From contig OZ076409.1 in the NCBI GenBank assembly GCA_964187785.1, positions 35,838,001-35,902,000 on the forward strand: a stretch of 64,000 bases of DNA. The letters run 5' to 3'. The position numbers and the translations under genes are program-made. The notes under the pieces were generated by a model. It was not told where the DNA came from and ran no database searches. It was given only the letters and a program-made list of their open reading frames with translations. The first letter of the stretch is position 1. Each line of letters opens with the position of its first letter. The DNA comes from Amphiscolops sp. MND2022 (taxonomy: Eukaryota). Below are positions 34,548 through 64,000 of this stretch, one piece after another.

Positions 34548-36070
34548 GTGATTTTAGACGTTAATCCACAAACATAGTGACTTTAGACGTTATTCCACAA
34601 GAAAATTGATTTTAGATGGTATTCCACAAAAATTGTAATTTAGGACGTAATTCTACCACAATACGGTGATTCTAGACATTTTTTTGAACTACAGTGTTTT
34701 TAGTTGGCGCTTTTCCATTAATGGAAAAATGCCCGACAATAGCAGTGACTGTTTTTTTCTTCAGACTACAATCCTTGCACTGATCGGTCCACTTTTTAGA
34801 AACAATCCTGATACCACCTATGGCGCCCAGTCCGGCAAAGGGGCCAAGGCAAACTTAGTGCAAAGAGTCCCCCTTTCATTTTTTACTTTTTCAAGGTAAC
34901 CTACAAAACCGGACGAGAATAAAGAGTCCTCCTTTTGATTTTTTTTCGGCACTGTGCAACATTTTTTCGAAAATTTTTTTTGTCTCCAAAGGGTTCCCCT
35001 CTCATTTTTTTATCTTTTTAAACGTAACCTAGAAAATCGGCCATTACTAAAGGGTCCCCTTTTGATTTTTTTGGTACTGTGCGACTTTTTTCGAAATATT
35101 TTTTTGTCTCTAAAGGGTCCCCTTTTCATTTTTAACATTTTAACGTAACCTAAAAAACCGGCCGAGACTAAAGGGTCCCCCCTTTGAGTTTTTTGTTATT
35201 TTGCAACAGAATGCATGTTTATAAATCAAAAAGGGTCCCCTCTTTTACATTTTTTGGCACTGTGCGACATTTTCCGAAAGAAAACATTTTTCGAAACTTT
35301 CAAATTCGTTATTCGTTATTTCAAAGACGTTATTCTGCAAAAGTATTGTTATTAGACTTTATTCTACAAGAATACAATGATTTTGGACATTATTTTAGTG
35401 TCTTTAGGTCCTATTCTATCAAAACAGAAGGATTTTAGACGTTATTCTACCAGAATACGATGATTTTTGACATAATTCTAGTATTATACATTGTTTTTAG
35501 ATCTTATTCTACCAAAATAAGAGTGATTTTAGACGTTATTCCAGAAATCTAGTGATTTTAGACGTTAATCCCCAAAATAGTGATTTTAGACGTTATTCCG
35601 CAAAAATAATGATTTTAGACGTTATTCTATCAGATTACGGTAATTTTAGACATTATTTTAGAAAAATACAGTGTTTTTAGATCTTATTATACCAAAATTG
35701 AGTGATTTCAGACGTTATTTTAGAAATATAGTGACTTTAGACATTATTCCCCAAAAAAGTGTTTTCAGACGTTATTCCAAAAAAATAATAATTTTAGACG
35801 TTATTCTACAAGAACACAGTAATTTTAGACATTATTCTAGTGGGATACAGTGTTCGGAGATCTTATTCTACCAAAATAGATTGATTTTCGACGTTATTCC
35901 ACAAATGTAGTGATTTCAGATGTTATTCCTTAAAAAAGTGATTTTAGACGTCATTCCACCAAAATATTGATTTTAGACGTTATTCTACCAGAATACAGTG
36001 ATTTCAGACATTATTCTGGTAAAATACACGTTATTCCAATAAAATTATTGGAATACACGTTATTCCATTT
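34548..36070. repeat. ~30-bp minisatellite (gattttagacgttattc core), interrupted by a HINE-like element
   Basis: Core recurs every 28-33 bp at 34548-34700 and 35320-36070; further blocks occur inside each 1.5-kb unit. Confidence 0.93.
34698..35305 (+). mobile_element. Second, 3'-truncated member of the HINE-like family with expanded ~120-bp internal repeats
   Basis: Begins TTTTAGTTGGCGCTTTTCCATTAATGGAAAAATGCCCGACAAT, matching the reverse complement of 8080-8122. Body matches the reverse complement of ~7700-8075 (aaacttagtgcaaag, cggcactgtgc, aaagggtcccc repeats). Confidence 0.78.
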
Positions 36071-39000
36071 CTTTGCGCTTTTTTCAAAGAAGGAAGTCAT
36101 CAGAAACGAAATACAAGGGCCCAAAAATCACCTGAATTTTTCGGAATAGAAATTTTTATTTCCAAAAAATTTGTTGAATATTTCACCCGAAAAACGCCTA
36201 TCTTCTCAACTCATGCAAAAAACTTCAACAAAAAGTCTCGCAAAAACCCTTAATAATCCTTCTCGGTAGTTTGTCATATTTTCTGAAGATGTTTGACGCT
36301 GAAAAGGTTGGTTAAAAAAACAATATTCAATCAATTAAAACAGCTTAATTTTGATATTCCGTTCTAAAAATGCAGTCTAAAACTTTGTTATGGAATTGTT
36401 TTGGTTTCTCCTAACACAAGATAAAAGTGATAAATATTGTCTATTCCGACAGTTTTCATGCCAAAAAAGTTTGTAAAGATTACAAATCACTTGGCTTAGT
36501 CATTTGGTATAATTTTTTTCTTGTGTCATTTGTTTTAACAACTTTGAGCCAAATGACCACAAAACTAAGCCAAGACAGTTCTAATTCAAGCAATAGCTAA
36601 AAACAATTTAATAAAGGCCAGAGCTGAATTGAAATCTTAGCCAAATGTTGAAGGAAGTTTTGAATTGAAATGAAAAGGTCAGAATATTTGTTGTATGGCT
36701 CGTTCGCTTCGCTCCTATCACTAACTAGCAACATTGAGGAATGGCCAAATGGTACGTCGCTCCACTTCTTCCTGCTTCAGGGAACTAGGAAATTGTTAAA
36801 ATAGCTGACCTTGTTATAACAAAAATCTAGACGAAAAGTGGCATGCGTTTTCAACCCGGTTCTTTTCAGCCAAGTGGGATTGCACCAAGAGACCATACAC
36901 CAAAACGACGTTTGGCTGAAAAAAACTAAGGGAAGTGGCCAAACGCATTGGGCCAAAGATTTTCCATATTAATGACGACTTCAAGCCAAATAACCATACA
37001 CCAATGTAAACACATCAATTGTTAAACTGTCAACACTGTTTCAATCTTTTCAACTGAAACTCGGTTTCCTGGTTACTGTGAAGTTTTTGGCAGATTCTCT
37101 TAGAGTTAACACACTTTTTGACTGTTCTTCCGACTCCCATTTTGGTTTTGGTTGGTGCCTCAAAAGATGTCAACCAGAATATTCTGAAAACTTCTACTCC
37201 TGACTTTGTTAGGGCCTGAACTCCTGATCGTGGCTGGGTTGTCGGATTTGTAGACGTTATTCCTCAAAAATACCAATTTTAGACATTATTCTACCAGCAT
37301 ACAGTAATTTTAGACTTTTTTTTGGTGAAATACAGTGCTTTTAGATCTTTTTTTTACCAAAATAAGCAAGATTTTAGACGTTATTCCACAAATACAGTGA
37401 TTTTAGAGGTTATTCCCAAGAAAAATAATTAAAGACGTTTTTCCCCAAAAAAGTGATTTTAGACGTTATTCCACAAAAACATTAATTTTAGACGTTATTC
37501 TACCAGAATACGGCAATTTTAGACATTATTCTGGTAAAATACAGTGAATTTAGACGTTATTCCCATAAAATAAAGTCTCAGGGCCTTTTTTCAAATGAAA
37601 AATTATCAGAAATGAAATACAACGGCCCAAAATTCAACTGATTATTTCGGATTAGAGTTTTTTAATTCCAGAAAAATTGTTGATTTTTCCTCCCGAACAA
37701 CACCTAATTTCTCAACTCATGCGGAAAATTCTTCAACAGAAATGCTTGCAAAAACCTTTAATAATTCTTCTGGTTAGTGTGTCAGATTTTCTGAAGATAT
37801 TTGACGCTGAGAAGGTTGAAAAAAAACAAACTTCAATTAATTGAAACAGCCTAATTTTGATATTCCGTTCTAAAATAGTTCCCTAAAAGTGCCGTCTAGA
37901 ACTTTTTTATGGGATTGTTTTTGTTTCTCCTAACACGAACAAGGATAACGATTGTCCATTCCGACAGTTTTCATGCCAAAAAAGTTTGTAAAGATTACAA
38001 ATCACTTGGCTCAGTCATTTGGTATTCTTTTTTCATTGTGTCATTTGTTTTAATAAGTTTGAGCCAAATGACCACAAAATAAAGCCAAGACATATCTATA
38101 TCAAGCAATAGCTAAAAACAAACTATTTAGGGCCAGAGCTGAATTGAAATTTTAGCCAAATGTTGAAGGAAGGTTTGAATTGAAATGAAGAGGTCAAAAT
38201 GTTTGTTGTATGGCTCGTTCGCTTCGCTCCCATCACCAAGTAGCAACATTGAGGCATGGCCAAATGGTACGTCGCTCCGCTTTGTCCTGCTGCAGGGCCC
38301 TAGGAAGTTGTTAAAATAGCTGACTTTGCTTATTCAAAAATCTAGACGAAACGTGGCATGCGTTTTCAACCCGGTTTTTTTCAGCCAAGTGGGATTGCAC
38401 CAAGAGACCATACACCAAAACGACGTTTGGCTGAAAAAAAACTAAGGGAAGTGGCCAAACGCATTGGGCCAAAGATTTTCCATATTAATGACGACTTCAA
38501 GCCAAATAACCATACACCAATGTAAACACATCAATTGTTAAACTGTCAACACTGTTTCAATCTTTTCAACTGAAACTCGGTTTCCTGGTTACTGTGAAGT
38601 TTTTGACAGATTCTCTTAGAGTTAACACACTTTTTGACTGTTCTTCCGACTCCCATTTTGGTTTTGGTTGGTGCCTCAAAAGATGTCAACCAGAATATTC
38701 TGAAAACTTCTACTCCTGACTTTGTTAGGGCCTGAACTCCTGATCGTGGCCTGTTTGTCGGATTTTTAGAGGTTACTCCTCAAAAAAAATGTTTTTAGTT
38801 GTTATTCTACCAGAATACGGTAATTTTAGACATTTTTCTGGTGAAATAAAGTGTTTTTAGAACTTCTTTTACCAAAATGGGAAAGATTTTAGACGTTATT
38901 CCACAAATATAGTAATTTTAGACGTTATTCCCAAAAAAGTGACTCAGGACGTTTTTCCCCGAAAAAGTGATTTAGGACTTTATTCCACAAAAATACTAAT

Positions 39001-42000
39001 TTTAGACGTTAATCTACCAGAATACGGCAAGTTTAGACATTATTCTGGTAAAATACAGTGAATTTAGACGTTATTCTAATAAACTAAAGTCTCTAGGCCT
39101 TTTTTCAAAAAAATGTAAACAGAAATGAAATACAACGGCCCAAAATTCAACTGAAAATTTCGGGTTAGAAATTTTTATTTCCAGAAAACTTGTTGACTTT
39201 TCCTCCCGAACAACACCTAATTTCTCAACTCATGCGGAAAATTCTTCAACAGAAACGCTTGCAAAAACCTTTAATAATTCTTCTGGTTAGTGTGTCAGAT
39301 TTTCTGAAGATATTTGACGCTGAGAAGGTTGAAAAAAAACAAACTTCAATTAATTGAAACAGCCTAATTTTGATATTCCGTTCTAAAATAGTTCCCTAAA
39401 AGTGCCGTCTAGAACTTTTTTATGGGATTGTTTTTGTTTCTCCTAACACGAACAAGGATAACGATTGTCCATTCCGACAGTTTTCATGCCAAAAAAGTTT
39501 TTAAAGATTACAAATCACTTGGCTCAGTCATTTGGTATACTTTTTTCATTGTGTCATTTGTTTTAATAAGTTTGAGCCAAATGACCACAAAATAAAGCCA
39601 AGACATATCTATATCAAGCAATAGCTAAAAACAAACTATTTAGGGCCAGAGCTGAATTGAAATTTTAGCCAAATGTTGAAGGAAGGTTTGAATTGAAATG
39701 AAGAGGTCAAAATGTTTGTTGTATGGCTCGTTCGCTTCGCTCCCATCACCAAGTAGCAACATTGAGGCATGGCCAAATGGTATGTCGCTCCGCTTTGTCC
39801 TGCTGCAGGGCCCTAGGAAGTTGTTAAAATAGCTGACTTTGCTTATTCAAAAATCTAGACGAAACGTGGCATGCGTTTTCAACCCGGTTTTTTTCAGCCA
39901 AGTGGGATTGCACCAAGAGACCATACACCAAAACGACGTTTGGCTGAAAAAAAACTAAGGGAAGTGGCCAAACGCATTGGGCCAAAGATTTTCCATATTA
40001 ATGACGACTTCAAGCCAAATAACCATACACCAATGTAAACACATCAATTGTTAAACTGTCAACACTGTTTCAATCTTTTCAACTGAAACTCGGTTTCCTG
40101 GTTACTGTGAAGTTTTTGGCAGATTCTCTTAGAGTTAACACACTTTTTGACTGTTCTTCCGACTCCCATTTTGGTTTTGGTTGGTGCCTCAAAAGATGTC
40201 AACCAGAATATTCTGAAAACTTCTACTCCTGACTTTGTTAGGGCCTGAACTCCTGATCGTGGCCTGTTTGTCGGATTTTTAGAGGTTACTCCTCAAAAAA
40301 AATGTTTTTAGTTGTTATTCTACCAGAATACGGTAATTTTAGACATTTTTCTGGTGAAATAAAGTGTTTTTAGAACTTCTTTTACCAAAATGGGAAAGAT
40401 TTCAGACGTTATTCCACAAATATAGTAATTTTAGACGTTATTCCCAAAAAAGTGACTCAGGACGTTTTTCCCCGAAAAAGTGATTTAGGACTTTATTCCA
40501 CAAAAATACTAATTTTAGACGTTATTCTACCAGAATACGGCAAGTTTAGACATTATTCTGGTAAAATACAGTGAATTTAGACGTTATTCTAATAAACTAA
40601 AGTCTCTAGGCCTTTTTTCAAAAAAATGTAAACAGAAATGAAATACAACGGCCCAAAATTCAACTGAAAATTTCGGGTTAGAATTTTTTATTTCCAGAAA
40701 ACTTGTTGACTTTTCCTCCCGAACAACACCTAATTTCTCAACTCATGCGGAAAACTTCAACAGAAATGCTTGCAAAAACCTTTAATAATCCTTCTCGTTA
40801 GTGTGTCATATTTTTTGAAGATATTTGATTCTGAAAAGGATGAAAAAAAAAACAAATTTCAACCAATTAAAAGAGCCCAATTTTGACATTCCGTTCTAAA
40901 ATAGTTCCGTAAAAATGCCGTCTAGAACTTTGTTGTGGAATTGTTTTCGTTTCTGTTGACACGAAAAGAGATAAATATTGTCTATTCCGACAATTTTTAT
41001 GCCAAAAAAAATTGTAAAGATTACAAATCACTTGGCTTAGTCATTTGGTATAATTAATTTCCTTGTGTCATTTGTTTTAAAATCTTTGAGCCAAATGACC
41101 ACAAAACTAAACCAACACCATTCTAATGCATGCAATAGCTAAAAACAATTTATTAAAGGCCAGAGCTGAATTGAAATTTTAGCCAAATTTTTTTCCTCCC
41201 GAACAACATCTAAATTCTCAACTCATGCGGAAAACTTCAACCGAAATGCTCGCAAAAATCTTTAAGAATCCTTCTCGTTAGTGTGTAATAATTTCTGAAG
41301 ATAATTGACGCTGAAAAAGATAAAAAAAAACAAATCTCAACTAATTAAAACAGCCTAACTTTGAAATTCCATTCTAAAAGAGTTCCGTAAAAATGCCGTC
41401 TAGAACTTTGTTATGGAATTATTTTCGTTTCTCTTAACACAAAAAGTGATAAATATTGTCTATTTTGACAGTTTTCATGCCAAAAAATTTGTAAAGATTA
41501 CAAATCACTTGGCTTAGTCATTTGGTATAATTTTTTCCTTGTGTCATTTGTTTTAATAACTTTGAGCCAAATGACCACAAAACTAAGTCAAGACCATTCT
41601 AAGTCACGCAATAGCTTAAAACAATTTATTAAAGGCCAGAGCTGAAATGAAAATTCAGCCAAATTTTGAAGGGAGGTTTGAATTGAAATGAAGAGGTCAG
41701 AATATTTGTTGTATGGCTCGTTCGCTTCGCTTCCATCACCAAGTAGCAACATTGAGTCATTGCCAAATGGTACGTCGCTCCGCTTCGTCCTCCTTCAGGG
41801 CCCTAGGAAGTTGTTAAAATAGCTAACCTTGCTATATCAAAAATCTAGACAAAACGTGGCATTCGTTTTCAACATTGTAATTTTCAGCCAATTGGGGTTG
41901 CGCCACGAGACCATACACCAAGACGACGTTTGGCTGAAATAATCTAAGAGAAGTGGCCAAACGCATTGGGCAAACGATTTTCAATATAAATGACTTCAAG

Positions 42001-43690
42001 CCAAGTAACCATTCACCAATGTAACCACATCAATTGTCAAACCGTCAACACTGTTTTAATCCTTTCCAACTGAAACTCGGCTTTCTGGTTATTTTGAAGT
42101 TTTTGACCGATTCTCTTAGAATTAACACTCTACTTGACTGTTCCTCCGACTCCCATTTTGGTTTTAGTTGGTGCCTCAAACGATGTCAACCAGATTATTC
42201 TGAAATTTTCTACTCCTGACTTTGTTAGGGCCTGAACTCCTGATCGTGGCTGGCTTGTAAGATGTTTAGACATTACTCCTCAAAAATATCGATTTTAGAC
42301 GTTATTCCACCAGAATACGGTAATTTTAGACATTTTTCTGGTGAAATACAGCGTTTTTAGATCTTATTTTACCAAAATAGGACTGATTTTAGACGTTATT
42401 CTACAAACATAGTGCTTTTAGACGTTATTCCAAAAAAAGTGATTTTAGACGTTTTTTGCCAAAAAAGGGATTTTAGACATTATTTCACAAAAATACTAAT
42501 TTTAGACGTTATTCTGCCAGAATACGGCAATTTTAGACACCATTCTGGTAAAATACAGTGAATTTAGACGTTATTACAATAAAATAAAATCTCTAGGCCT
42601 TTTTTCAAATAAAAAGTCATCAGAAACGAAATACAACGGCCCAAAATTCATCTGAAAATTTAGGATTAGAATTTTTATTTCAAGGAAACTTGTTAATTTT
42701 TCCTCCCGAACAACACCTAAATTCTCAACTCATGCGGAAAACTTCAACAGAAATCTTTAATAATCCTTCTCGTTAGTGTGTAATTTTCTCTGAAGATGAT
42801 TGACGCTGAAAAGGATGAAAAAAAAACAAATCTCAACTAATTAAAACAGCCTGACTTTGAAATTCCGTTCTGAAATAGTTCCGTAAAAATGCCGTCTAGA
42901 ACTTTGTTATGGAATTATTTTCGTTTCTCTTAACACAAAAAGTGATAAATATTGTCTATTCCGACAGTTTTCATGCCAAAAAAATTGTAAAGATTACAAA
43001 TCACTTGGCTCAGTCATTTGGTATAATTTTTTCCTTGTGTCATTTGTTTTAATAACTTTGAGCCAAATGACCACAAAACTAAGTCAAGACCATTCTAAGT
43101 CACGCAATAGCTCAAAACAATTTATTAAAGGCCAGAGCTGAAATGAAATTTCAGCCAAATTTTGAAGGGAAGTTTGAATTGAATTGAAGAGGTCAGAATA
43201 TTTGTTGTATGGCTCGTTCGCTTCGCTCCCATCACCAAGTAGCAACATTGAGGCATGGCCAAATGCTACGTCGCTCCGCTTTGTCCTGCTGCAGGGCCCT
43301 AAGAAGTTGTTAAAATAGCTGACCTTGCTATATCAAAAATCTAGACGAAGCGTGGCGTGCGTTTTCAACATGGTGATTTTCAGCCAAATGGGATTGCGCC
43401 ACGAGACCATACACCAAGACGTTTGGCTGAAAAAAATTGAGATAATTGACCGAAAGCATTGGGCCAAAGAACATCAAAACAAATGACTGCAAGCCAAGTA
43501 ACCATTCATCAATTTAAACACATCAGTTGTCAAACTGTCACCACTTTTTCAATTCTTTCCAACTGAAACTCGGCTTTTTGAATATTTTGAAGTTTTTGGC
43601 AGATTCTTTTTGGGTAAACAATCAACTTGACTGTTCCTCCGACTTTGTTAGGGCCTGAACTCCTAGTTGTGGCTGGGTTGTCTGATTTTT
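35970..43690. repeat. ~1.5-kb tandem array (about 5 units plus a ~480-bp partial): minisatellite block + AT-rich block + foldback-like flank + Copia LTR tip
   Basis: Landmark taaagattacaaatcacttggc at ~36472, 37987, 39501, 41013, 41490, 42986; LTR tips at 37207, 38723, 40236, 42223; full LTR at 43646. Confidence 0.95.
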
Positions 43691-43872: not shown

Positions 43873-46800
43873 CCACCGCTCGATGAGAATCCCGAAGAGA
43901 TTCTGGTGGTTCATGATTGCGAACCGCTGTGACTGACGATCTGTCGTGTCTAGGCAGCGGTTGAGAGGCCTCTATCCATCAGTTGAAGAGAAACTGAAAG
44001 TCGTCATAGTCCTAGTTCTAACATAAACTTGATAATGGGTAAAGTAAAATAATTGAGTTGTGAGGGAGGCAAGAGATACGTTGATGATTGAGGTGGCTGA
44101 ATGACAAAGAGTTGCGATGAGAGCTCTTTAAAGGCAGGCTTGGGTAGATTCTTGGTGCAGATATCAGCAAAGATATTCTTTGTGGAGAGAGACATGGGAT
44201 AGTTGAATGCGTTTGTTCTAAACCAGTTGACGGAAGGTGTGGTGTCGGGTTTCTATGTTTGTTGGCGACAGGGTTACTGGCCAGTGCGACAGCAGAAGAA
44301 GCGTGTCTAACGTCATCAAGGAGAAGTATGTCGGCAAGCCTTGCAAATAGACTGCTTCATGTGCAGCTAAAGCTACGAAGCATTCTCGGCTTCACAAGAG
44401 CTAAGTGCCACACACCCTTGCTGTTTGGACGCCCAAGAGACAACCAAAAAAAAACTTATTTTGAAGCAAAAACCCGAAGTTGACTTGCGATCATCCTTGT
44501 CGGTAGCCCAATCGGAATCTGGAAAATCAAAAAGACCTAGTTTTTTAGAGCGATTAAGCACAAAGTGTTTCAATGCACACAAATGGGCTTCACCGGGAAT
44601 TGACACGAATTGCGCTTAAGTTTTAGACAGCAAAGCAAATTTCGCGGCGACTAACAACGGACAAATACATTAAGTTTCCAACTAAGCTACAATTTTGTTT
44701 CTGTTCGCAAAACTCAAGTGAATTTTCACTACCTTCCAAAGGGCAGTCCGATTTAGACTGTTTTGTTTGAGGTATAGCTGGCGTACTGATTGGTTTATAA
44801 TTAGACATATGGCTTTTGCGCAAAAATCCTTTGTAAATGATTGCTGACTAAGAGAAATGCGAGTGCGTGACTGTTCAACATCGCTTCCGAAAAACCAAGT
44901 CATTTCCCCGGATCATCAATGCTGAATGCATTGCTGAGTTTCGCCTCGAAGTCATGCAGTTTTTTGTTGTTGTTTGAAAAGTACAAAATGTCGTCGACCC
45001 AAAATAGTACGAAATTTTGGGGACCATTGGTCCCATCGCAACAAAAAAGACAATGATCCTCGGCAGACTTTACGAATTCGTTCTTCAAAAACCACTGAGT
45101 TGAGGTTTTGTTTCATTCGCTCTTTGCTTGTTTTAAACAATAAAGGCATTTTTGAAGCTTGTAAAAATGTGCTTCACTATTAGCCCCCGCTTGCGCAAAG
45201 CCTTCTGGTTGTTGTATGTAAAGTTCAACTCTTAAGTTCGCATCGAGGAAGGCTGAACGGACATCTAATTGAAAAACAAAAATCGACCACGAAGCAGCGA
45301 GCGCAAAACAAGACCTCAAGGTACAAAGTTTGGCAGTAGGCGCACAAATTTCATCCTACTTGCTCCCACAAACATGCAAAACACCTTGGGATACGAAACG
45401 AGCCTTGAATTTCTCAATTGATCTGTCGTCGTGTCTCTTAGTTTTGAAAACCCACCGGCTTCCAATTGCCTTTCGACCCTGCGAAAGCAGCGAAAGCATC
45501 CAGCTTTTGTTTTCAATGAGCGGATTGTACTCCTTTTGAGTAGCTTCGATGCATTCGCTTTTAAGCTATGGCTTCATTGCTTCACAATAAGTTAGATTCT
45601 CATCACTGTCATTCGTTAACAGAACGTAGTCGTCAAGATACGCAGGAGGTTTGATAATTCTCCTAATTCGAGACCGCGAAAACACTACTTTCAATAGCCT
45701 CAATGATTTCAGATGAAACAACATCAACGGGGGAAGAAGTTGTTCCAGTTTCGATATCATTCAATGTTCCAGTCGGTAAAACAGGAACTGGAGACTTTTC
45801 GCAAAATTTTTTCTGTGTTTCAGGCAAAACTTTTTTCTGTGCCGGCTTTTGGATAACAAGCGCTCAAATGTTTTGACTTAGGTGCGCAGTAAAAGAGTCA
45901 CAAGAAGTCTCATTAAGGGAGACGTTGCGAGAAAGCGAAGTCTGTTTAGAGTAAAGACTGTACAAAATGTGTGCTTCAGAATCCTCAGAAGAACCAACAA
46001 AAAGTTTTTTGGTGGTTTATCGGAAAGATTCTCTTGATGCGTTTCGATGTGTTTGAAAGCAGTACACCCAAAAATTTTCAAATTGGAAAGATCTGGTTTT
46101 TTACCAAAGACCGTTTCGAAGCGCGCTTTACATTTTGGTAAACTTACTGTGAGGCAAAGGTTTGAAATGTAAAAAGCAATGAGTAAGAGCCGAATCCAAA
46201 ATTCATTGCCGAAATTGGATGTTTTTAGCATGCAACGAGCCATTTCGACTGTTGTTTGGCAGCGACGTTTACTCACACCATTTTGATGAGGCGAATAAGG
46301 GGCTGTATGCTCACCTTTGATTCTGTTTGACATACAAAAACATCGAAAAGACTTGGGCATGTCCTCTTTCCCATTATCAGAACAGATTGCTGTGGGCATT
46401 CCCACTTGCGCACAAAAAAGTTTGAGTTTAACTAGGCACTCGTTTTTCGATTTGAAGAAAATTACCGCTGCGTACCTGCTTTAGCATCGGTCTCAAACTG
46501 TCAGTGAAAACGAGATCAAGTTTCGAAGTTTTTGTCTCCATTTTTGTGATACTGGTTGCCGTCGTGATTTAGAAATTTTGCAAACTTCACAACAACAAAG
46601 TTTATCGAAAGCACAGTTTTTCAAACTCATTCCCGAAACATGAAGAACCAAACATTTCACAATTTTGAAATCGTTGCGACCAAGGCGTTGATGCCACAGC
46701 ACCGCTTCTTCGTTCTCACCGGAAAAAGAACAAAAATCAAATGTCTTTCTTTTCAAAACGTAAAGATTATCGTGCTCTTTAAGAGGAATAGTTGCAAATC

Positions 46801-48030
46801 CATCACGATTGACAAAAATGCTCAGAGATTGTCCGGAGTCCACTTGAGCCCCGCTTTGTGTCAACTTGCTAACACTGATAATGTTATGAGAATGATCAGG
46901 AAGAAAACGTCCCATTCGCATTTTTACTTTGCGTTGTGTTTCTTCGCTAAAGTCGAAGAACAGAGAACGGTCAAAAAACATATGCGAGGAGGCACCAGAG
47001 TCGATGGATAAAGGGTGCTCCTTAACCTTGCATTTTTGGCTAACGAGTGCAGTCTCACTACCTTCGCAAAAAAAGGTAAGTCCTCAGCTAGGTTTGATTC
47101 TCCTGTCTCAGCACTTGACCTAGATTCAAAAGATGGTTTCTCTTGAAACATTCATTCTTTTCATGGCCAAAACGCCTGCAAAAGTTGTACTGGGATACTA
47201 TACAAGTGGCTTGTGTAAGTCCACTTTTACCGCAACGCCTATACTTCCCAGTGAAGTTTGGGCGATGTTTGCGCGAGGAAGCTTTTCAGGTTTGCGCGAG
47301 GAACTTCCTGCGGCAGTACCTTTGGAAAACAAAGCAACATATTCATCGCTAGCTATCACAGTTTATAGGTTACGTCAACTACCGAAATTTTTATTGCCTC
47401 TTTACCTTTGCAAAAGACGCCTTATTTCTCGAAAAAACGTGCACAATTTTGAAATAGTCATACTCGGAAGGCAAACCCTTGAGAATTTTTGAAAATAACA
47501 TGTTTTCAGAAATTTTCTCACCAGCCGGCTACAACTGCTTACTCACATACAACGCTCGAGTCAGGTAGTCAACGATGCTCTCCGTGGGCTTTAATCACAG
47601 GGTTGTGATCTTCTCCAATAGGTTCATCAACTTCGGTGTTTCGGTGCTGTTGCAGACAACATCAGGAAAATGCGGCAGTCAAGACACTGTTTCAAGTATG
47701 CCCAAATGTAGTACTTCTTTTAATTCGTACCAGCATCTGTCCCATTCAGCACGTTCAGCACCTTCTTTGTGAAACAGAACCCCTTCGAATTGCTCCTGCC
47801 CGCGACAGACAGAAGGAACTAACTGAAACCAAAACGGGCAACAAAACAGGAATTTCCACGAATACATGCTACAATTATAAAGGAAGCAGAACGGTGGTAA
47901 CGGACGTCATAAATAGCAGAAACTGTGGATATCCGAGACGCAGAAAGCAAAAATTGAGAACGAGAAATAAAGATCAGACAAGCATAGTGAGAGTAGGCGA
48001 GAAAAAAAGTTAAAAACCAAACTCGCCAAT

Positions 48031-54110: not shown

Positions 54111-54170
54111 CATCAAAAATTTTGTTAACTGACAATTACCTATCATCGACCCTGTAGATGCTTCGGGATG

Positions 54171-55140
54171 AATTAGGTCCAGTTTGTAGAATACCAGTTT
54201 GTAGATTTTTACATACTGGTCCTAGGTGTTCCAGTTTGTAGAATTTATTTCTACAAACTGCATCATTGAATTCTACTATTTGTACATCCTTGACGCAAGA
54301 TCCTGAGAGCTCCACTGACTAAGATCTAAAGGAACAAGATCTAAAAACTGCAATGGGGGGTATATCCGGTGTATGCACCTCGCCCTCACTGTCGCAAAGA
54401 CCAGCTCCCAGAACTATCGCTTCGCGATCTCCGTTCCAACTAAGTCTATGCTCCTGTTCGACTGTTCGACCTCGCTTAGCAAGATGGGAGCATAGGTGGG
54501 CCCAAGGGGCCGCGGGGCACTGGAAGAAATGTGGACTTCTACAAAACTGGAGGGAATGGGAAACTCTACAAACTGGACCTCACTTTTCCACAAATTGGAC
54601 TCTACAAACTGGTTTTCTACAAACTGGTTAGGACCAGTTTGTAGAATACCAGTTTTTAGAATTCTGGAATTGAAGAAAAACAATAAGGCTAATAATGTAG
54701 GAATGATGCAAAGTATAAAACGTGCCTCGGACATTACCCCATTTCTTCTAGTGCCCAGCAACCCCTTGGGGCAGCTTACGCTCCCATCTTGCTAAGCGAG
54801 GTCGAACATGAGCAAAAAACCAGCGGGAACGGAGATCGCGAAGCGATCGTAGTGGGAGCTGGTCTTTGCGACGGTGAGGGCGATCGTGCATACACCGGAT
54901 ATGCCCCACATTTCAGTTCTTAGATCTTATTCCTTTAGACCTTGAGCAAGGGAGCTCTCAGCATCTTTTGTCAAGGATGTCCAGTTTGACAAATTTAACG
55001 ATCCAGTTTGTAGAATTTAATGATCCAGTTTGTAGAATTTGACAATCCAGTTTGTAGAAAAAAAATTCTACGAATTGGAGCACCTAGGACCAGTTTGTAG
55101 AACTCTACAAACTAGTTTTCTACAAACTGGACCTAAATCG
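54171..55140. mobile_element. Foldback/MULE-like element or head-to-head pair with ~360-400-bp inverted arms
   Basis: 54171-54532 is the diverged reverse complement of 54738-55138 (ttaggtccagtttgtagaa ... ttctacaaactggacctaa); ttctacaaactgg subrepeats; no TSD found. Confidence 0.8.
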
Positions 55141-55714
55141 AGAAGGGTCTCACATCGTCAACTTGTGCACTGAATCAGCTTACGAGTGGGCGAGGTCTTG
55201 AAGAGGTGATAACTCATGAGGAATTACCAAAAAGAATTGTCGTGAGGGAAAACACTACTTGCAGGTAGTTTCTATTTGATAAGCACTCATATGAAGCATA
55301 CATACAACAATTAGGCTAACATAAATAAAACAACATTATATACCAGTAATGATAACTACATATGTATTACATTCATAACTTTCATTTTAAAAACCAAAAA
55401 ACTGCAATAAACCATAAGGCTTATGGCTGCCGAACTATTTTTTTCCTCTATCAGATATCATGGATCTTCATCATCACTCAGGTGCCTTGTGCATCATCAT
55501 GTTGGGGGAGAAGACACACACCCGTGGTCATCAACGAAACTAGGGAACCCCATACCAGCGACTATCCCAGTAGACCAGTAACAAAATAAAACAACCAACA
55601 AACTACTCATACCAGCCACTGTTCCAGTCGACCGGTAGACTTTTTTTAAAGCTGCAATGATATACATGTTTTGAAAAAAAATTCAAATAAGTTTCAAAAT
55701 TTCTTCGAACACAT

Positions 55715-56729
55715 CTCTCGCTCACAGTTTCTAGAACACAGGCCGCATTGCCAATCTGAAGGGCCATTGAAATCCGTTGCTTCGAAAAGTTGTCAGCTCG
55801 TTGATCGTCGTGCGAACGAAAGAGCATTTTACAAAGACGCGTGATGAAAAATTCACTGCTCTCGCCTAAAAAACCCTGAACTCCCAAGGCCACCGGTTGA
55901 AAATTGTTTCCAATGTCTATTAATTCGCGATACTTCTCAATTTTACGCGCTTCAGCCTCGGTGGCGGTGGTTCCCGGGTTGCATAAAGAGGGGTAACTGT
56001 AAATAGAACGAATTTTTCATGTCGAAAGAACAGAGGCGGAACCTTTTGATCGAATTGCAGGGATCGAATGGAATGCGGTCGAATTTCATCGTAACCTTCG
56101 GGTCGAAAACGTTCTTTGTTTGCCTCAACTCGATTGACAAGCTAATTGTGGGGTATATGCTGTGTATTCACGCTCGCCCTCGCAAAGACCAACTCCCACT
56201 ACGATTGCTTCGCGATCTCCGTTCCCGCTGGGTTTTTGCTCCTGTTCGACCTCGCGTAGCAAGATGGGAACATAAGCGGCCCCAAGGGTCTGCGGGGCAC
56301 TAGAGGAAATGAGTACATATCCGGGACACGTTTTATACTTTTCTAGAAAATTCTATCTGCGGCAATTCGATTTGTTTGCCAAAAATCAAAAGTTCGATCC
56401 GAGTTGTTTCGATCCTATTCAAAAATATGGTATGTCGACCCGAGGACTAACTCTGATTTTCGTCCCGTTCCTTCGACTTATTTCCGCCCACTCCATAAAG
56501 AGCCTTGATTCAGTCAGCTGGTTGCAAGAGCATCCACATCAAGATAACACCGTCTGGGAGTTTGCCATCAGTTCGGTACAGTCCACGCGGTTCAAGCACT
56601 GAAGGCAAGTCGAGAGAACCCAACGTCTGGTTTATGAGAGAATTGAGTGTAGAATGACGTGAGAAGCGACCAGCAACCTTGGTGCAAGAAAGACCGTGTA
56701 AACCGTCCTGCTCAATTTTTACCACATTG
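55715..56729 (-). pseudogene. CRE-like non-LTR retrotransposon C-terminal restriction-like endonuclease (RLE) fragment, split by an insertion
   Basis: [37 protein letters not shown](L/R)PDG (56510-56729), continuing after the insert as CNPGTTATEAEARKIEKY..FQPVAL..G..QRISMALQIGNAACVL (55725-55985). Confidence 0.85.
55991..56493. mobile_element. 503-bp non-autonomous Mutator (MULE)-like insertion
   Basis: Exact 9-bp TSD CATAAAGAG (55982-55990, 56494-56502); imperfect termini GGGTAACTGTAAATA / rc GAGTGGGCGGAAATA; removing it rejoins the CRE reading (NQGSL-CNPG). Confidence 0.82.
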
Positions 56730-56911
56730 GCACGCGATTCCGGACGTTTCAGCAAAAGACGTTTTGGTAAAAACATGGCGGCGGACATTTCGGCAAAAAA
56801 ATATGCCGGAACCTCTCAGGCTAAAAACATTTGCCGAAACTTTTCGTATGATATGTGTGGCATATCGGGTGTATGCACGCTCGCCCTCACCGTCGCAAGG
56901 ACCAGCTCCTG

Positions 56912-57899
56912 CTACTTGCAGGTAGTTTCTATTTGATAAGCACTCATATGAAGCATACATACAACAATTAGGCTAACATAAATAAAACAACATTATATAC
57001 CAGTAATGATAACTACATATGTATTACATTCATAACTTTCATTTTAAAAACCAAAAAACTGCAATAAACCATAAGGCTTATGGCTGCCGAACTATTTTTT
57101 TCCTCTATCAGATATCATGGATCTTCATCATCACTCAGGTGCCTTGTGCATCATCATGTTGGGGGAGAAGACACACACCCGTGGTCATCAACGAAACTAG
57201 GGAACCCCATACCAGCGACTATCCCAGTAGACCAGTAACAAAATAAAACAACCAACAAACTACTCATACCAGCCACTGTTCCAGTCGACCGGTAGACTTT
57301 TTTTAAAGCTGCAATGATATACATGTTTTGAAAAAAAAATTCAAATAAGTTTCAAAATTTCTAAATTCCAAAAATCAAAAGTTCGATCCGAGTTGTTTCG
57401 ATCCTATTCAAAAATATGGTATGTCGACCCGAGGACTAACTCTGATTTTCGTCCCGTTCCTTCGACTTATTTCCGCCCACTCCATAAAGAGCCTTGATTC
57501 AGTCAGCTGGGTGCAAGAGCATCCACATCAAGATAACACCGTCTGGGCGTTTGCCATCAGTTCGGTACAGTCCACGCGGTTCAAGCACTGAAGGCAAGTC
57601 GAGAGAACCCAACGTCTGGTTTATGAGAGAATTGAGTGTAGCATGACGTGAGAAGCGACCAGCAACCTTGGTGCAAGAAAGACCGTGTAAACCGTCCTGC
57701 TCAACTTTTACCACATTGGCACGCGATTCCGGACGTTTCAGCAAAAGACGTTTTGGCAAAAACATGGCGACGGACATTTCGGCAAAAAAATATGCCGGAA
57801 CCTCTCAGGCTAAAAACATTTGCCGAAACGTTTCGTATGATATGTGTGGCATATCGGGTGTATGCACGCTCGCCCTCACCGTCGCAAAGACCAGCTCCC
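56912..57899. repeat. Local duplication of 55255-55702 joined to 56380-56910 (includes a second CRE RLE fragment at ~57483-57724)
   Basis: ORFs 55362-55589 and 57019-57246 are identical; ORFs 56510-56788 and 57499-57777 are near-identical. Confidence 0.93.
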
Positions 57900-58067
57900 A
57901 TTACGATCGCTTCGCGATCTCCGTTCCCGCTAGGTCTTTGCTCCTGTTCGACCTCCCTTAGCAAGATGGGAAAATAGGCGGCCCCAAGGGGCCGCGGAGC
58001 ATTAGAGGAAATGGGGATTTATCCGAGGCACGTTATTTGCTTTGCATCATTCCTACATTAATGGTCT
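57725..58067. mobile_element. Left arm of another MULE/foldback-like element (ggacgtttc.gcaaaa subrepeats plus shared core), cut by the Gypsy end
   Basis: Begins abruptly within the CRE zinc-knuckle coding sequence and carries the GC-rich core at 57847-58060; truncated copy at 56736-56910. Confidence 0.6.
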
Positions 58068-58200
58068 TGTAACGTTCCGAGATGATTGTTTTGTTGAATT
58101 TGAAGGATTTTCGGGACGCGTTGAGTTGACTGGAATGCTTTTTGAAGAAGGTTTTATATTGAAAATCAAATAAGGAGATACGTTGAGTTCGTGTTGTTAT
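58068..58200 (-). repeat. Probable distal part of the Gypsy 3' LTR
   Basis: Minus strand ends CGTTACA (TGTAACG on +) exactly where flanking repeat homology stops, and contains caatataaaa. The second LTR is not in the window. Confidence 0.5.
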
Positions 58201-58824
58201 CACTAGTACCACCCTGGTCTGGGTTGCTCAAGACACTCAATTTTCTGAAATTTCTTGTAATTTCTTCCACTGACGCATTATTGGGGACCAAAAGCAACTG
58301 ATACAGGTTAGATGATTCCATTTGTTTAAAATTTTCATGTAGCTGTGTAAGGTTCATTCGAAGTTCATCACACTGTCTTCTACCTTCGTCTAATTCGCCA
58401 AAAACATTTTCATAGTCATCTTGCCACACTTGTAATGTTCTTTTTAACTTCTTGAGTTCGTGTTTTTGCTCCTGGTTCTCCTTTGTAACTCCTGTGCCGC
58501 TTGTTGCCACAGGTACTTTTGTTGCCCCAACTTCTCGGCAGTGTGCTTCTCACGGGCTAACTCATCTTTGAAAGCTTGCAGTTGGTACTTGTGACTTTCG
58601 AGTTCTATGGCCACCGCTGCGACTGACGCCTTCAAGCTGGCTGCTTCCGTTTGGGTCATCTCGATTCTGCCGGTAATTGATGAAGGGAACAAAGTACCCG
58701 CTTCTGCCACCTTTCTGATCTTGCTAACAGACCCCTGCACTCTGTAGACCCCAGTCTTTACCACAGATTTGATGACAAAAACTTCAGGGAGGTAGTAAAC
58801 GCGATCATCCACATTGAAAGTCAT
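58166..58824 (-). pseudogene. Accessory ORF B: N-terminal module + coiled coil + truncated J-domain (one frameshift near 58510-58530)
   Basis: MTFNVDDRVYYLPE... (58444-58824 frame), then ...NLYQLLLVPNNASVEEITRNFRKLSVLSNPDQGG (58166-58510 frame), i.e. J-domain helices I-II with NPD in place of HPD. Confidence 0.8.
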
Positions 58825-59172
58825 CTAAAGGAGACAAAAAGACAACTGAAATGAACCAACAAGAAAAATGAAGCAGCATATATACATACATATATACATA
58901 TATAAACATATATATACATATATACAGATATATTTTGGCGTGATGATACCCATCTCTTTCGAGAACGACGCTCGTTCGTATAGTTCATTGCAGTTAGATC
59001 CAGTTTTAACAGAGCGAAGCCCGGTCTGAATTTTTCCTGAGGAGATGTAACCCATCTCTACTCAATCGAGCGCAACCCGTTCGCTAGTATTTCATTTGTT
59101 AAGGAACGAACCCCGTTCCCTCTTTTTTTAAATTTTTTCTAGAAATTTTTTTAATGTATATATATATTTGTT

Positions 59173-59928
59173 TTAGTCGCTCCACCTTGATTGTCTTGAC
59201 AACTCTTCCTCAGCACGCTCAAGTCCAAACAAGTTATACAATTCTCTGGCCATTTTATTTGAAAGTACGGAATAAGCTCTGTGGATAGATTTAAACTGTT
59301 CTTCGCAGCCATTCACATCGGCGTGAGTTAGAGACGCTAACTTCTTGTAATTCCGTTTGATTGTCTCTTCATCCGCATCTTCCTTGACGAAACGAACCTC
59401 ATTCAAGGTGAAAAGACGTTGAATCAAGGTTTTTTGCTTTATTTCTTTGATGAGTTTTTCAGTGACCTTAGCCTTCGCCCGTTCACTTCTAACAAGAGTT
59501 CTTTGCTTTTCCAAATCTTCGCTCAGTCGCCTTATCTTGTCTTTGTGTGTATGTACATCCATCTCAAGCTGGTGGATATACCTTCGTGCATCTTCAACCT
59601 CCCGATGCACGTTTCTTCCTTCACAATGTAGGCGCTCTTTCAGATTGTTCACTTCTGCCTTGGTGAGCTCCAACTCTTGTCGAATCCCGCCAAGTTGGGT
59701 GGTGGAAATGTCCGATCTCATCTTGATGTTGGATGGACTGAGGGTGTCTTCCGTTGCAATTTTTTGCATCCCCGAGACACATCCTTGAATTCGATACAAG
59801 CCCGGTCCCACTTTCGATTTGATTTGATGAAGTTCGGGCAAGTAGTATACATATTCATTTATACGGTTGTTTTCCATTTCTAAAAAAGTTAAAGGATTTT
59901 TAATGGTTTCATGATTCCTGTTTGTCAT
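59173..59928 (-). CDS. Accessory ORF A: N-terminal module + coiled coil + C-terminal DnaJ-type J-domain (251 aa)
   Basis: Uninterrupted ORF. VKEDADEETIKRNYKKLASLTHADVNGCEEQFKSIHRAYSVLSNKMARELYNLFG fits the J-domain consensus (A...IK.AY.KLA...HPD....E.FK.I..AY.VLS....R..YD..G); E/K/R/L-rich heptad middle region. Confidence 0.88.
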   Translation of the reverse strand: MTNRNHETIKNPLTFLEMENNRINEYVYYLPELHQIKSKVGPGLYRIQGCVSGMQKIATEDTLSPSNIKMRSDISTTQLGGIRQELELTKAEVNNLKERLHCEGRNVHREVEDARRYIHQLEMDVHTHKDKIRRLSEDLEKQRTLVRSERAKAKVTEKLIKEIKQKTLIQRLFTLNEVRFVKEDADEETIKRNYKKLASLTHADVNGCEEQFKSIHRAYSVLSNKMARELYNLFGLERAEEELSRQSRWSD

Positions 59929-61960
59929 TCAGTGTAACGTGCAATTTTGTTTCTGATGAGTTTTGTGCATCATTTAGGAGCTTTGAGGATCTGGGTTGTT
60001 GATTTTTGAGCTCCTTAACATCTAATAAAAATTTATTGTATTCATAAAACTGATTGAGCGGTTGCAAAGCAAATCGCGTTTTCGTACCCAACCGTTTCAA
60101 TCAAATTATGAAAACTATTTTGAATCCTAGTCGAACCAGCATTCCGATTAACGTGATTGTCAGAATAGTTACTGCTATCTCTCTCGCTATCCACCAAAAA
60201 AACAGCGTTTCCTTATTTACCGATTGAAACCACGGTAGTACTCTCCAGCTGAACCCAATCTGGTGCTCTGGAAAATTGAGATGAAACAAACTTTCATGCG
60301 AGTACGTGCCTTTTGAACCCAGATACACCTCTCTACCGGTTACTGTTGTACGGCTCTGGCGGATGGAGCGCGCGCGATTGCTTCTAACGAGATCTTCCAT
60401 TGTGAACAACCCATTACCATTCAAACCCACAAAGTTATGTGGCCTTAGTTCCCGTGAAGAGCTGTTCCGAAAACAACAGGTTCGACTCGCGCTAGTTCGG
60501 TTGTTTTTCCATACGTCACCCAGGATCCGTTTAGCAACTGATACAAATTGGGGTACACTGGGTTGCATTCGGTCAGTGTGTAGTTGTTGTCAAAAATCTT
60601 TGAAATTGGATTCATGAATTTAATCACGGACCCTTTCCCATCGCCAAGTCTCACAGGGATTTCTTCTGTGCAGAAGTCTAAAGTTGCCAGTGTAATTTCC
60701 ATTTTTGCACATCTGTGTAAGTATACAACCTCGCCCGCACGTTCAATATGTGTTCCCACCATCTCGTCCCCACTTATTGCACTGTCGAGATTTGAAATTA
60801 ACACATCTTGAATTCGACATCTCTGGTAGTTGACTTCCTGCCAAGCTCGTTCCATTTCCTGTAACCCTTGGGCATGTAAGAAATCAACTTTGCTCTGTAG
60901 GAGCGTTTCTTCGCCAATGTTGTTCATAATTTTAACTGGTAAATCTGTACTTCGAATGAAAACAAAATTCCCTTCATGATGGTTGGGTAAACTGTAAAGT
61001 TACACAAAGAAACGGGCTGGTTATGAATTTCCAGTGCGAACTTTCTGCCTTGTCTGTTGCTAACGAATCCCGTTAGCATGCTGTTTTTTTCACCAACTAA
61101 TTTGATCACATTGTTTCTTCCATTTATGCCGAAGAGTTTATAAAGGTCGCACTCTTTTGGCTTGGCCACCAAGTAAACCACAAAATCTTTTTCGAAATCA
61201 GTTTCGATGTCGTCGCTTGTTATAGGGTTTCCGAGAGGGTCGTTCCACTTATGGAAGTTGCTTCCGCCAAGTTGCTTCCGCCAAGTTGCTTCTGAGTGAA
61301 CACTTTTCCAATTGTCAGTCGTCCATTGATGAGGACAGACGCTTCAATTACCTCTCCTGTTGGTGTTGTCCATTCAATTGGTGTTGAAAACCCAATCCCT
61401 TTTCCTTTAGCTTTCATAAATTTTTCTGAGTAGTCGAAGTTCTTAAACAACTCATGCTGAAAATTATTAACTTCTTCTATATCAGTCTTTTTCAATTGGA
61501 ACCGATTTTGCTGAATCCCGGTAATATGAAAGGTTTTGCTGCCCACGCCTGACGACAAATTACAATCGAAATCAAGTAAAATGTTGGTAAAATCTTTGAT
61601 TTTTCATGTAAATACAGTCCATTATCATAAACAGATGATTTTTTCATGTACGACACCGTATACGAGGCTTGATAATGACAAGTTTTCATTTCCCGCCTAC
61701 CGTCGTTGTCGCTGAACACCACTGAACCACGTGGCACTGATGCCATCTCACTCGAACATCGAGTACAATTTTTTTGATCAGTTAAGGAGTACACCGTGGT
61801 CCCTACAACTTGCTCGAAGTCGTATACTACAGTTTTAATGTTTTCTTCTTGCACCGATACAGCAATAATAATCAAAAGTAGTATTATCTTGTTATCTGTG
61901 TCTCTGTTTTCTCTTGGGATTTGCATTCTTTTTCCGTGTTCTCGGCTGCTCCTAATTTCC
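59909..61960 (-). pseudogene. env: env-like glycoprotein resembling chuvirus-type G proteins, broken into about 6 ORF pieces
   Basis: Signal-like KIILLLIIIAVS followed by VVYD; motif block AGEVVYLHRC...CTEEIPV...FMNPIS...ECNPVYPNLYQLLNGSW; GLFTMEDL; C-terminal hydrophobic WWIAREIAVTILTITLIGMLVRLGFKIVFII. Lies directly 3' of integrase. Confidence 0.75.
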
Positions 61961-63559
61961 TGAAGCAAAAACGTCGTTGTCATCGAAAGAAGTATCGTCA
62001 TTGTACGCAAAATAGTCACCGAATCTTTTCGGAACTGATCGGATACGAGTACTTTTCTCCCTTTGTGGCACTATTGGAGGCATTCTCTTGTTTTTTGGTT
62101 TCGTAACTTTTGTTTGAGGCGTTTTTAATGGAAGCGATTCATTGTTAACTCCCTCTGCATAACTTTTCATTCTTGCTCCGGCATCAGATTCCTTTAAATC
62201 GCTTGTGCTCGCAGTAGGCCCTTGTTCGCTTTCGGTACTTTTTTGCCTCTCATCTGGATTGGCTACTCGTTCTCTCTTTCCTAATTTACCTATCTGTTCA
62301 ATCTCAACCTCTATTAAGTCGTAATCGATGATCCCAGATTCGTCTGTTTGTTGAGTTTCAGTGTGTTCCTGGGTTCCGCTCATTCTTGTGAAGATTCGCT
62401 CCCGCGGTTTGTACTTTTTCATTCGATCGTAATGTACTTTGATTACTTTTCTGGTCTCTTCGTGGCACACACGGAAATTCAGATCGTTGATTATTTCGAG
62501 AATTTTGTACGGTCCTCTGTAGAACGAAGTGAACTTCTTTGTTTGTCCCTTCTTTACTGTAGGGAAGAAAATAAGCACTTGTTCACCCACGTGGTAGACA
62601 GGGCCATATGCCCGGTAATCATAATACGTTTTCTGTTGTGTTTGTTCTAATTCCATGTGCGATCTCACAAGATAGTGAGCTTTTTGAAGTTCTCTCTTTG
62701 TGTTGTAAATAAAATCACTCGGAGTCGGGAATAATTCGGTATGACGTGTCTCGTACATACAATCAATCGGTAATCTCAATGGTGTTCCCATCACAAGATA
62801 GTTTGGACTATGTTTAGTGACTGCATGAATTGACGAGCGATATGCCATCATGACCAGTTGCAAATAACAGGTCCAATCGCTCTGGTGATTATCGATGTAT
62901 TTCGAAAAGCTTTCTTCAATTGTCCGGTTTGTTCTTTCAATCATCGCATTGCCTTCTGGATGAAAAGGAGTGGTGGATGTCCGTTCAATGCCCAAAACAC
63001 GACACAACTCTGTAAAGAGTTCCGACATAAAATTTGTTCCTTTATCACTATGTAAATTCACGGGACATCCGAATTTCGTGATCCAGTTATCGACTAATGC
63101 TTGTGCGACTGTTTTTGCTTCCTGATTTGCCATGGCAACGGTTTCGAACCATTTACTAAATTGATCACCAATCAACAAAATGTACTTTTGGCCATTGGAT
63201 TCTGGCAAAGGACCCATCACATCTAATGATACCTGCCAAAAAGGATGGCTCGGTTTCCACATTTTTAGACTGTGTCTGTGTTTCTGTGGGGTGCCTTTTC
63301 TCCTCAAGCATTTATCACAGCTTTGAACCCAGCTGTTCACGTCTCGTTTCATCCCAGGCCAAAAGAACCGTACTTGAGCTCTCTGATATGTCTTTTCGAT
63401 TCCGAAATGGCCTGTGCACGGAGACTTGTGCAGCAATGGTAGTCTTTTGGAAATTTGATTCTCCGCAACAATAAGCTGATGTGCCCAACGATCTCCGTCT
63501 TCTAATTTTTTTGTTCTGAAGAGAAGTCCTTGTATCAACGTGAGGTTCTTAAAGTCCAC
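61952..63559 (-). CDS. pol: Gypsy pol, integrase portion (HHCC, DDE, GPY/F)
   Basis: LHKSPCTGHFG..FFWPGM..CDKC; VSLDVMGPL; LHSDKGTNF; HPEGNAMIERTNRT; YRGPYKI; open for 535 codons. Confidence 0.96.
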   Translation of the reverse strand: MDFKNLTLIQGLLFRTKKLEDGDRWAHQLIVAENQISKRLPLLHKSPCTGHFGIEKTYQRAQVRFFWPGMKRDVNSWVQSCDKCLRRKGTPQKHRHSLKMWKPSHPFWQVSLDVMGPLPESNGQKYILLIGDQFSKWFETVAMANQEAKTVAQALVDNWITKFGCPVNLHSDKGTNFMSELFTELCRVLGIERTSTTPFHPEGNAMIERTNRTIEESFSKYIDNHQSDWTCYLQLVMMAYRSSIHAVTKHSPNYLVMGTPLRLPIDCMYETRHTELFPTPSDFIYNTKRELQKAHYLVRSHMELEQTQQKTYYDYRAYGPVYHVGEQVLIFFPTVKKGQTKKFTSFYRGPYKILEIINDLNFRVCHEETRKVIKVHYDRMKKYKPRERIFTRMSGTQEHTETQQTDESGIIDYDLIEVEIEQIGKLGKRERVANPDERQKSTESEQGPTASTSDLKESDAGARMKSYAEGVNNESLPLKTPQTKVTKPKNKRMPPIVPQREKSTRIRSVPKRFGDYFAYNDDTSFDDNDVFASGN

Positions 63560-64000
63560 TCAAAACTTCCATAGTTCCCTAGAAGCTCCGTTCATGTTTT
63601 TTCGATCAGGTCTCTGCTTTTCTTCGATCCATTTAGGACTTTCTTTATGTTGTTATCTTCATGCTGTTTCATTTGCATACTATTACGATCTGTATTCTGG
63701 ATTAACATCCATGGGTTCGCAGGATGTTCCTCCATTGTCGTGTTTTCTCTCAGTGCTGCCACATAGACAGTTATCGGATCTTCCTCCTCCGGCAGTACTC
63801 GCGATAAACAATCTGCATGAGGGATGCTTCTACCCGCTTTATGTTTAATTTCGAAGTCAAATTGTCCAAGTTTTTCCAACCAACGTGCAACCATCCCTTC
63901 TGGATCTTTGAAACTGTAGAGCCATACCAAAGCTCTGTGATCAGTAACTATTGAAAATTTTCTACCTAAGAAATAGGTTTTGAAATGATTTGTAAAATGG
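63560..64000 (-). pseudogene. pol: Gypsy pol, RNase H and linker (frameshifted relative to integrase)
   Basis: HFKTYFLGRKFSIVTDHRALVWL..DPEGMVARWLEKLGQFDFEIKHKAG...HADCLSR. Confidence 0.92.

Follow-up and report, generated by a model that had tools for sequence, protein, structure and literature searches.

The right end of the window, which is the whole 64-kb stretch of DNA that was analysed, carries on its minus strand a piece of RNase H, an integrase ORF, an env gene and two further genes, ORF4 and ORF5, all on one strand and in this order (Table 1). The locus is probably what is left, in decayed form, of the 3' half of an LTR retroelement of the Gypsy type with a gB-like env and two J-domain genes. 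The right edge of the window falls inside pol, and the reverse transcriptase, protease, gag and 5' LTR would lie beyond it. The env start codon (61926) is 25 nt past the integrase stop (61952) and the env stop codon is at 59909-59911; ORF4 starts 31 nt past this stop, and ORF5 starts 348 nt past ORF4. An AT-rich simple repeat (58875-58936) occupies part of the spacer between ORF4 and ORF5. The initial annotation of this DNA had ended at the env stop, and the two J-domain ORFs behind env had been overlooked.

Table 1. Candidate features of the retroelement locus, in the order of the element
Feature	Position	Strand	Evidence
RNase H, 3' part of pol	63592..64000	-	PF17917 RT_RNaseH, E 2.7e-09
Integrase ORF: H2C2, core, GPY/SH3-like C-terminal domain, long tail	61952..63559	-	Pfam matches (see text)
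Acceptor-like site, 33 nt before env ATG	61960..61979	-	rank 11 of 410 AG sites
Broken env, signal peptide to TM anchor and tail	59909..61926	-	PF24664; relatives map in five pieces
env signal-like hydrophobic stretch	61887-61855	-	
env YD motif	61824	-	
env GEVVYLHRC	60735	-	
env CTEEIPV	60672	-	
env FMNP	60618	-	
env CNPVYP	60567	-	
env NGSW	60531	-	
env GLFT	60412	-	
env TM-like stretch	60178-60122	-	
Acceptor-like site, 2 nt before ORF4 ATG	59880..59899	-	rank 3 of 410
ORF4, 234 aa, open: ~55-aa N-terminal domain, coiled-coil-like middle, C-terminal J-domain	59173..59877	-	PF00226, E 5.6e-12
Acceptor-like site, directly before ORF5 ATG (0 nt)	58825..58844	-	rank 1 of 410
ORF5, paralog of ORF4, frameshift near 58.47 kb	58196..58824	-	PF00226, E 1.4e-06

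RNase H precedes the integrase, both match Gypsy-type families, and the integrase has the H2C2 region, the core and the GPY/SH3 tail, as is characteristic of Ty3/gypsy elements (Metaviridae). The integrase ORF matches PF17921 (E 1.4e-18), PF00665 (E 1.5e-12) and PF22938 (E 5.7e-08), and its tail matches Integrase_p58_C and, weakly, SH3_Tf2-1 (E 0.008). Residues 25-386 align with the Ty3 Gag-Pol protein (E 1.4e-24) and residues 44-265 with the foamy virus integrase (E 2.6e-27). In the window copy the RNase H piece and the integrase ORF are in different frames. No BEL/Pao-type pol family, such as Peptidase_A17 or DUF5641, matched the RNase H and integrase ORFs in Pfam at E <= 0.1; the intended positive control, the BEL-like remnants at 327-1298, gave no Pfam match either and was uninformative. 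The assignment to Gypsy rather than to BEL/Pao, made in the initial annotation, is borne out by the Pfam matches of both enzymes and by the similarity to Ty3.

The junction between integrase and env (61731-62081) is spanned, with 11 differences, by a contig from another sequencing run, and the database ORFs P0013 and P0017 read through from the integrase tail into env. Judging from these sequences, the junction is not peculiar to the window copy. Two DNA runs were mapped (X1 and X2, equal in size and probably one data set). Their contigs cover env and pol in part, with low depth, and have zero depth over 58416-60019, a gap which in such contigs proves nothing. No related loci were found for ORF4 or the env relative P0039 in metagenome contigs, or for the integrase, ORF4 or the env relative P0005 in viral contigs. 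The element region is not repeated elsewhere in the 64-kb window.

All the features of env noted in the initial annotation, namely the signal-like peptide, the YD motif, the motif series and the C-terminal TM stretch behind a Gypsy integrase, were found on the minus strand (Table 1), and the set as a whole is far beyond chance. An env gene with signal peptide, ectodomain and TM anchor behind pol is the layout of errantiviruses with a gB-type env. The piece at 60448-60999 matches PF24664 (Monjiviricetes_fusion, E 6.7e-14, 51.2 bits against a cut-off of 27), whereas the other four of the five env pieces match no envelope family in Pfam.

The gene is broken in the window copy. Since the relatives P0005 (668 aa), P0010 and P0016 align across it in five frame pieces, it carries four frameshifts, located near 61.5, 61.27, 60.96 and 60.48 kb. 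In addition, a single premature stop codon follows closely on the TM stretch. Identity per piece is about 60-93% for P0010 and P0016, with lower values where the match overruns a break, and 42-60% for the full-length P0005. One of the breaks is a short tandem duplication, and therefore the decay is real at least in part. In several env relatives (P0001, P0002, P0010, P0025) the frame is lost, or the protein ends, shortly before the TM anchor and close to a run of T. This may be a sequencing slip, a mutation hot spot or a secreted form.

A HMMER scan with the best env piece yielded 173 proteins at E <= 0.001. PF24664 is present in all 28 longer matches that were scanned and in P0005 and P0010, and five of these proteins also contain retroelement pol or gag domains. 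In P0156 it occurs together with reverse transcriptase, RNase H and an H2C2/rve integrase of the Gypsy type. P0087, P0100, P0140 and P0156, which form one clade, have the PF24664 env in frame with one or two aspartic proteases; the fusion in P0156 takes in the whole Gypsy-type pol, and the group resembles the published GAG-ENV-POL arrangement.

The fold was modelled for the intact relative P0005 (54% identical to the window piece), as a monomer and from an alignment of 60 rows, and not for the broken gene of the window. The model has a mean pLDDT of 73.9 and a pTM of 0.51. When compared with the PDB it matched herpesvirus gB in every row listed (best E 1.9e-12), with global TM-scores of 0.20-0.28, that is, with local agreement at the level of domains. 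In BFVD the glycoproteins of xinmo-, chu-, qin- and rhabdo-like viruses came on top (best E 2.3e-28, identity 13-18% in the top 14), with chu-like virus G at ranks 3, 5 and 6, and gB came after them. The env profile matched Xinmoviridae G with a probability of 96.9, and a sequence search of the PDB with this profile gave no matches. None of the five env pieces, nor P0005 or P0010, matched an F-type envelope protein of baculoviruses or paramyxoviruses in Pfam, and the fold matches listed are class III. By its profile and by the predicted fold of its relative, env belongs with chuvirus G to one family of class III (gB-like) fusogens, and is not of the baculovirus-F type. The initial annotation had assigned the protein to the chuvirus-like glycoproteins, had pointed to a class III fold as a check and had named an F-type env, a non-viral protein or no fusogen fold as outcomes that would speak against it. 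Because the fold matches of P0005 are gB and the glycoproteins of negative-strand RNA viruses, none of these outcomes occurred, and the PF24664 match is in agreement.

The pairing of such an env with a Gypsy-type element, treated as unreported in the initial annotation, was already in print: Chary and Hayashi (eLife 2026, PMC13524379) describe 114 elements in which gypsy POL is accompanied by an Anakin-type glycoprotein. The window adds one very divergent lineage to this pairing. Like the errantiviruses with HSV/gB-type ENV of that study, which comprises 1512 elements, the element has pol followed by an env with signal peptide, gB-like ectodomain and TM, and the glycoprotein belongs to the family known from mosquito BEL/Pao elements and Chuviridae; unlike them, it has two J-domain ORFs behind env, and the window copy is decayed. 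With Anakin, a Pao/BEL element with a chuvirus-like glycoprotein (Dezordi et al. 2020, PMC7642597, as far as its accessible text goes), it shares the use of this glycoprotein family as the env of an LTR element. However, the backbone here is of the Gypsy type, and no named viral G is close to env. The available parts of two earlier papers mention Gypsy fragments near such glycoproteins with no clear capture (PMC10084718) and restate the scheme, adopted in the initial annotation, that links errantiviruses with baculoviruses and Anakin with chuviruses (PMC12440569).

A quick tree of 45 rows, with SH-aLRT support only and with long-branch warnings, unites the window piece with seven relatives (SH-aLRT 100). 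Their clade has a stem of 2.5 changes per column and is separate from Xinmoviridae G, the only named viral row. Because of these warnings, and because most rows are nameless, the tree shows distance and not origin. An independent and rather recent capture of this env from a chuvirus by a Gypsy lineage, or its transfer from an Anakin-type BEL/Pao element, is very unlikely, although the PF24664 match, the chu-like virus G among the top structural matches and the profile match to Xinmoviridae G would all suit it. The env family does form a lineage of its own in the tree, which leaves room for a separate capture. However, it shares 13-18% identity with the named viral G proteins, its long stem is not nested among virus-like rows in that quick tree, and gB-type env occurs in gypsy elements of many phyla, from which PMC13524379 argues for an ancient origin. 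With a long stem of its own and with matches mixed among virus families at this low identity, neither the independent chuvirus capture nor the swap with BEL/Pao put forward in the initial annotation is established.

ORF4 and ORF5 are, by the J-domain and by the HPD motif of their relatives, class C J-domain proteins. The cut in ORF5, at 58196, falls within the J-domain, near residue 210 of the 248. The loop of the J-domain reads HAD in ORF4 and NPD in ORF5 of the window, in line with decay of these copies. There are 13 relatives of ORF4 with 56-94% identity, and two relatives of ORF5, P0228 and P0229 (248 aa), which stand for clusters of 20 and 5 members. HPD is intact in 17 of the 18 ORF4 relatives with the loop and in both ORF5 relatives; the ORF4 count is based on 32 entries, of which one, identical to the window's own, was set aside, and 13, most of them truncated or with frameshifts, had no J loop that could be matched. 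PF00226 was found in all six relatives scanned (52-64 bits against a cut-off of 27.8). The J-domain is nearest to ordinary class A/B J-proteins, for example DNAJA1 (E 8e-11).

A relative of ORF5 aligns with a relative of ORF4 at 30% identity (E 2e-29), and this identity differs by part: 47-51% in the N-terminal domain, 13-21% in the middle and 33-41% in the J-domain. The N-terminal domain matched no known domain in Pfam or by profile comparison, and the ESM Atlas gave nothing above 0.79 for ORF4 and the ORF5 N-terminus. Derivation of this domain from the C-terminal SH3 domain of the element's integrase found no support (hhalign E 0.83, no Pfam match).

Each of env, ORF4 and ORF5 is preceded by an acceptor-like site (Table 1). 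The score was ad hoc, namely a pyrimidine tract ending in AG, applied to the 410 AG sites on the element strand, and both the score and its cut-off were set post hoc. Equally good sites precede 11 of 120 ATGs, which gives about 8e-4 for all three genes. Since the score was set after the sites had been seen, and since the opposite strand has scores of up to 11.6, as high as the ORF4 site, these sites are a lead only. It is rather likely, by analogy with complex retroviruses, that env, ORF4 and ORF5 each have an acceptor of their own and are expressed from separate spliced subgenomic RNAs. A second acceptor-like AG (rank 6) lies 21 nt before the ORF5 ATG.

ORF4 and ORF5 are very probably enclosed by the LTRs of the element and replicated together with it, as suggested by the co-occurrence of their relatives with env. 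This linkage was derived from equal contig sizes in bp, used as labels, and not from reading the DNA of the relatives. Members were covered for five env clusters and for nine of the 13 ORF4 clusters, and the representative only for the other four. Among 25 distinct sizes of env-bearing contigs, 18 recur among the 29 sizes of ORF4-bearing contigs; seven env sizes have no ORF4 match, and 11 ORF4 sizes, one of them the window's own, have no env match. Large contigs can carry both genes by chance. Three of the shared contigs, of 4063, 10100 and 10431 bp, are short, and hence env and ORF4 must be close together there. The pair with the size of 10100 bp belongs to a diverged subfamily (54% identity in env, 68% in ORF4). 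The size of 348338 bp is common to relatives of env, ORF4 and ORF5. No ORF4 size match was found for the distant env P0039 (38% identity, contigs up to 8827 bp), and no env match for the diverged ORF4 cluster P0187 among the members listed. The divergences of env and ORF4 correlate weakly (rho 0.47, p 0.07) in 16 of the 18 pairs, two having been dropped by a coordinate cut-off, and the env identities are lowered by run-through at frameshifts.

It is unlikely that ORF4 and ORF5 are a passenger, that is, a host or foreign J-protein cassette which sits in the 3' region of the element and is copied without serving it. The weak correlation just given, the many broken copies and the closeness of the J-domain to ordinary J-proteins are what a passenger would show. 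Moreover, no 3' LTR was recognised within the window past the ORF5 cut, where the 3' end is lost. However, ORF4 is retained beside env in the pair that has diverged to 54% and 68%. The gene is duplicated, and the copies are conserved domain by domain, with HPD, at 30% overall identity. The ORFs are free of introns, have acceptor-like sites of their own and lie on the strand of the element. Finally, all 13 relatives of ORF4 and both relatives of ORF5 look like repeat copies, and none is a named host gene. The pair of J-domain genes behind env is thus likely, on the strength of these comparisons, to be a new part of the element.

If so, the following scheme may be suggested. The genomic RNA would encode gag-pol, and spliced RNAs would encode env, ORF4 and ORF5. 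Env would act as a class III fusogen in spread from cell to cell: trimers of an intact env probably bring about membrane fusion and the passage of particles between cells, as has been argued for errantiviruses of the gB type, for which PMC13524379 calls entry by env unknown but likely. The N-terminal domain of ORF4 and ORF5 would bind a target, the coiled coil would serve as a spacer or for oligomerisation, and the HPD loop of the J-domain would fire the host Hsp70 on the bound target. According to the accessible part of a 2026 review (PMC13254874), HPD is essential for stimulation of Hsp70, and there is a good chance, given the HPD of the relatives, that intact copies of both proteins stimulate it.

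The N-terminal domain matches nothing known, which leaves the target open to either of two readings. Hsp70 helps to load small-RNA silencing complexes, and the J-proteins may aim it at a silencing or restriction complex of the host and dismantle it, as SV40 T antigen does with Rb-E2F. This reading is a close rival, although somewhat unlikely. The J-domain of SV40 T antigen acts on host complexes (PMC13254874, accessible part) and a J-protein is encoded by phage RB43 (PMC3486835, likewise in part). However, the N-terminal domain is well conserved, whereas surfaces involved in counter-defence may be expected often to change fast. We tentatively favour, as the single most plausible target, the Gag/Pol particle of the element itself while it assembles or uncoats. 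With slightly less than even confidence, the element can be described as a 'complex' invertebrate retrovirus, in which one donor and three acceptors would give rise to the gB-like env and to two dedicated co-chaperones of Hsp70 whose targeting domain is new; the latter would be the first J-proteins encoded by a retroelement, and would remodel its own particle or dismantle host silencing.

J-proteins encoded by DNA viruses and by a phage are known, but none was found for a retrotransposon in the literature searched. Polyomavirus T antigens and the product of gene 057w of phage RB43, so far as the available portions of these sources describe them, similarly combine an HPD J-domain encoded by a mobile genome with a separate targeting part. 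Here, in contrast, the J-domain is C-terminal and lies behind a coiled coil, there are two paralogs and the carrier is a retroelement; the comparison concerns architecture alone. ORF3 of bdelloid LTR elements (GDSL esterase, DEDDy exonuclease, TM or coiled-coil; PMC5408684) is likewise a case of captured non-env ORFs 3' of pol. However, in the accessible part of that report DnaJ or J-domains are absent, and here the extra ORFs come on top of a full env.

No J-domain protein encoded by a retrotransposon was found in the searchable literature, which leaves out most subscription papers and Repbase/GyDB, and an unpublished or Repbase/GyDB annotation of such ORFs is possible. The main text of PMC13524379 does not mention DnaJ, J domain, chaperone, accessory or splicing, and its supplementary text files do not mention DnaJ. 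Transposons and retroelements are not mentioned in the survey of J-domain proteins PMC10410713, nor transposons in the accessible portion of the main text of PMC13254874. The other literature matches for DnaJ or Hsp with retrotransposons, as far as these papers are accessible, are the host protein SILENZIO (PMC8616336) and papers on chicken genomics (PMC11835228) and yeast ageing (PMC10998562). If the proposed reading is correct, retroelements can capture a host co-chaperone module, duplicate it and express it in the manner of the accessory genes of complex retroviruses. ORF4 and ORF5, as small soluble proteins, would then allow one to find out directly what in retrotransposition, or in host defence, depends on an aimed Hsp70.

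The rest of the window contains other repeats and remnants. On the minus strand, 5546-8651 and 45881-47083 hold decayed remnants of a Copia-like pol, with matches to gag_pre-integrs, Pol_BBD, rve and SH3_retrovirus. ORF pieces at 327-1298, also on the minus strand, resemble by eye the gag zinc knuckle and protease of BEL/Pao elements and have no Pfam match. A tandem array at 10559-26924 has 41 copies of a 397-bp unit with 91% matches, seemingly of several interleaved unit types, and in the region 34548-42575 a unit of 28-31 bp forms many short arrays, next to a tandem duplication of 478 bp in the same region. Nested inverted repeats, whose arms reach 231 nt (87%), are clustered at 54170-58068 together with a duplicated block of about 2 kb. 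This cluster begins about 130 nt past the ORF5 cut, has high depth in the mapped runs and may have replaced the 3' end of the element.
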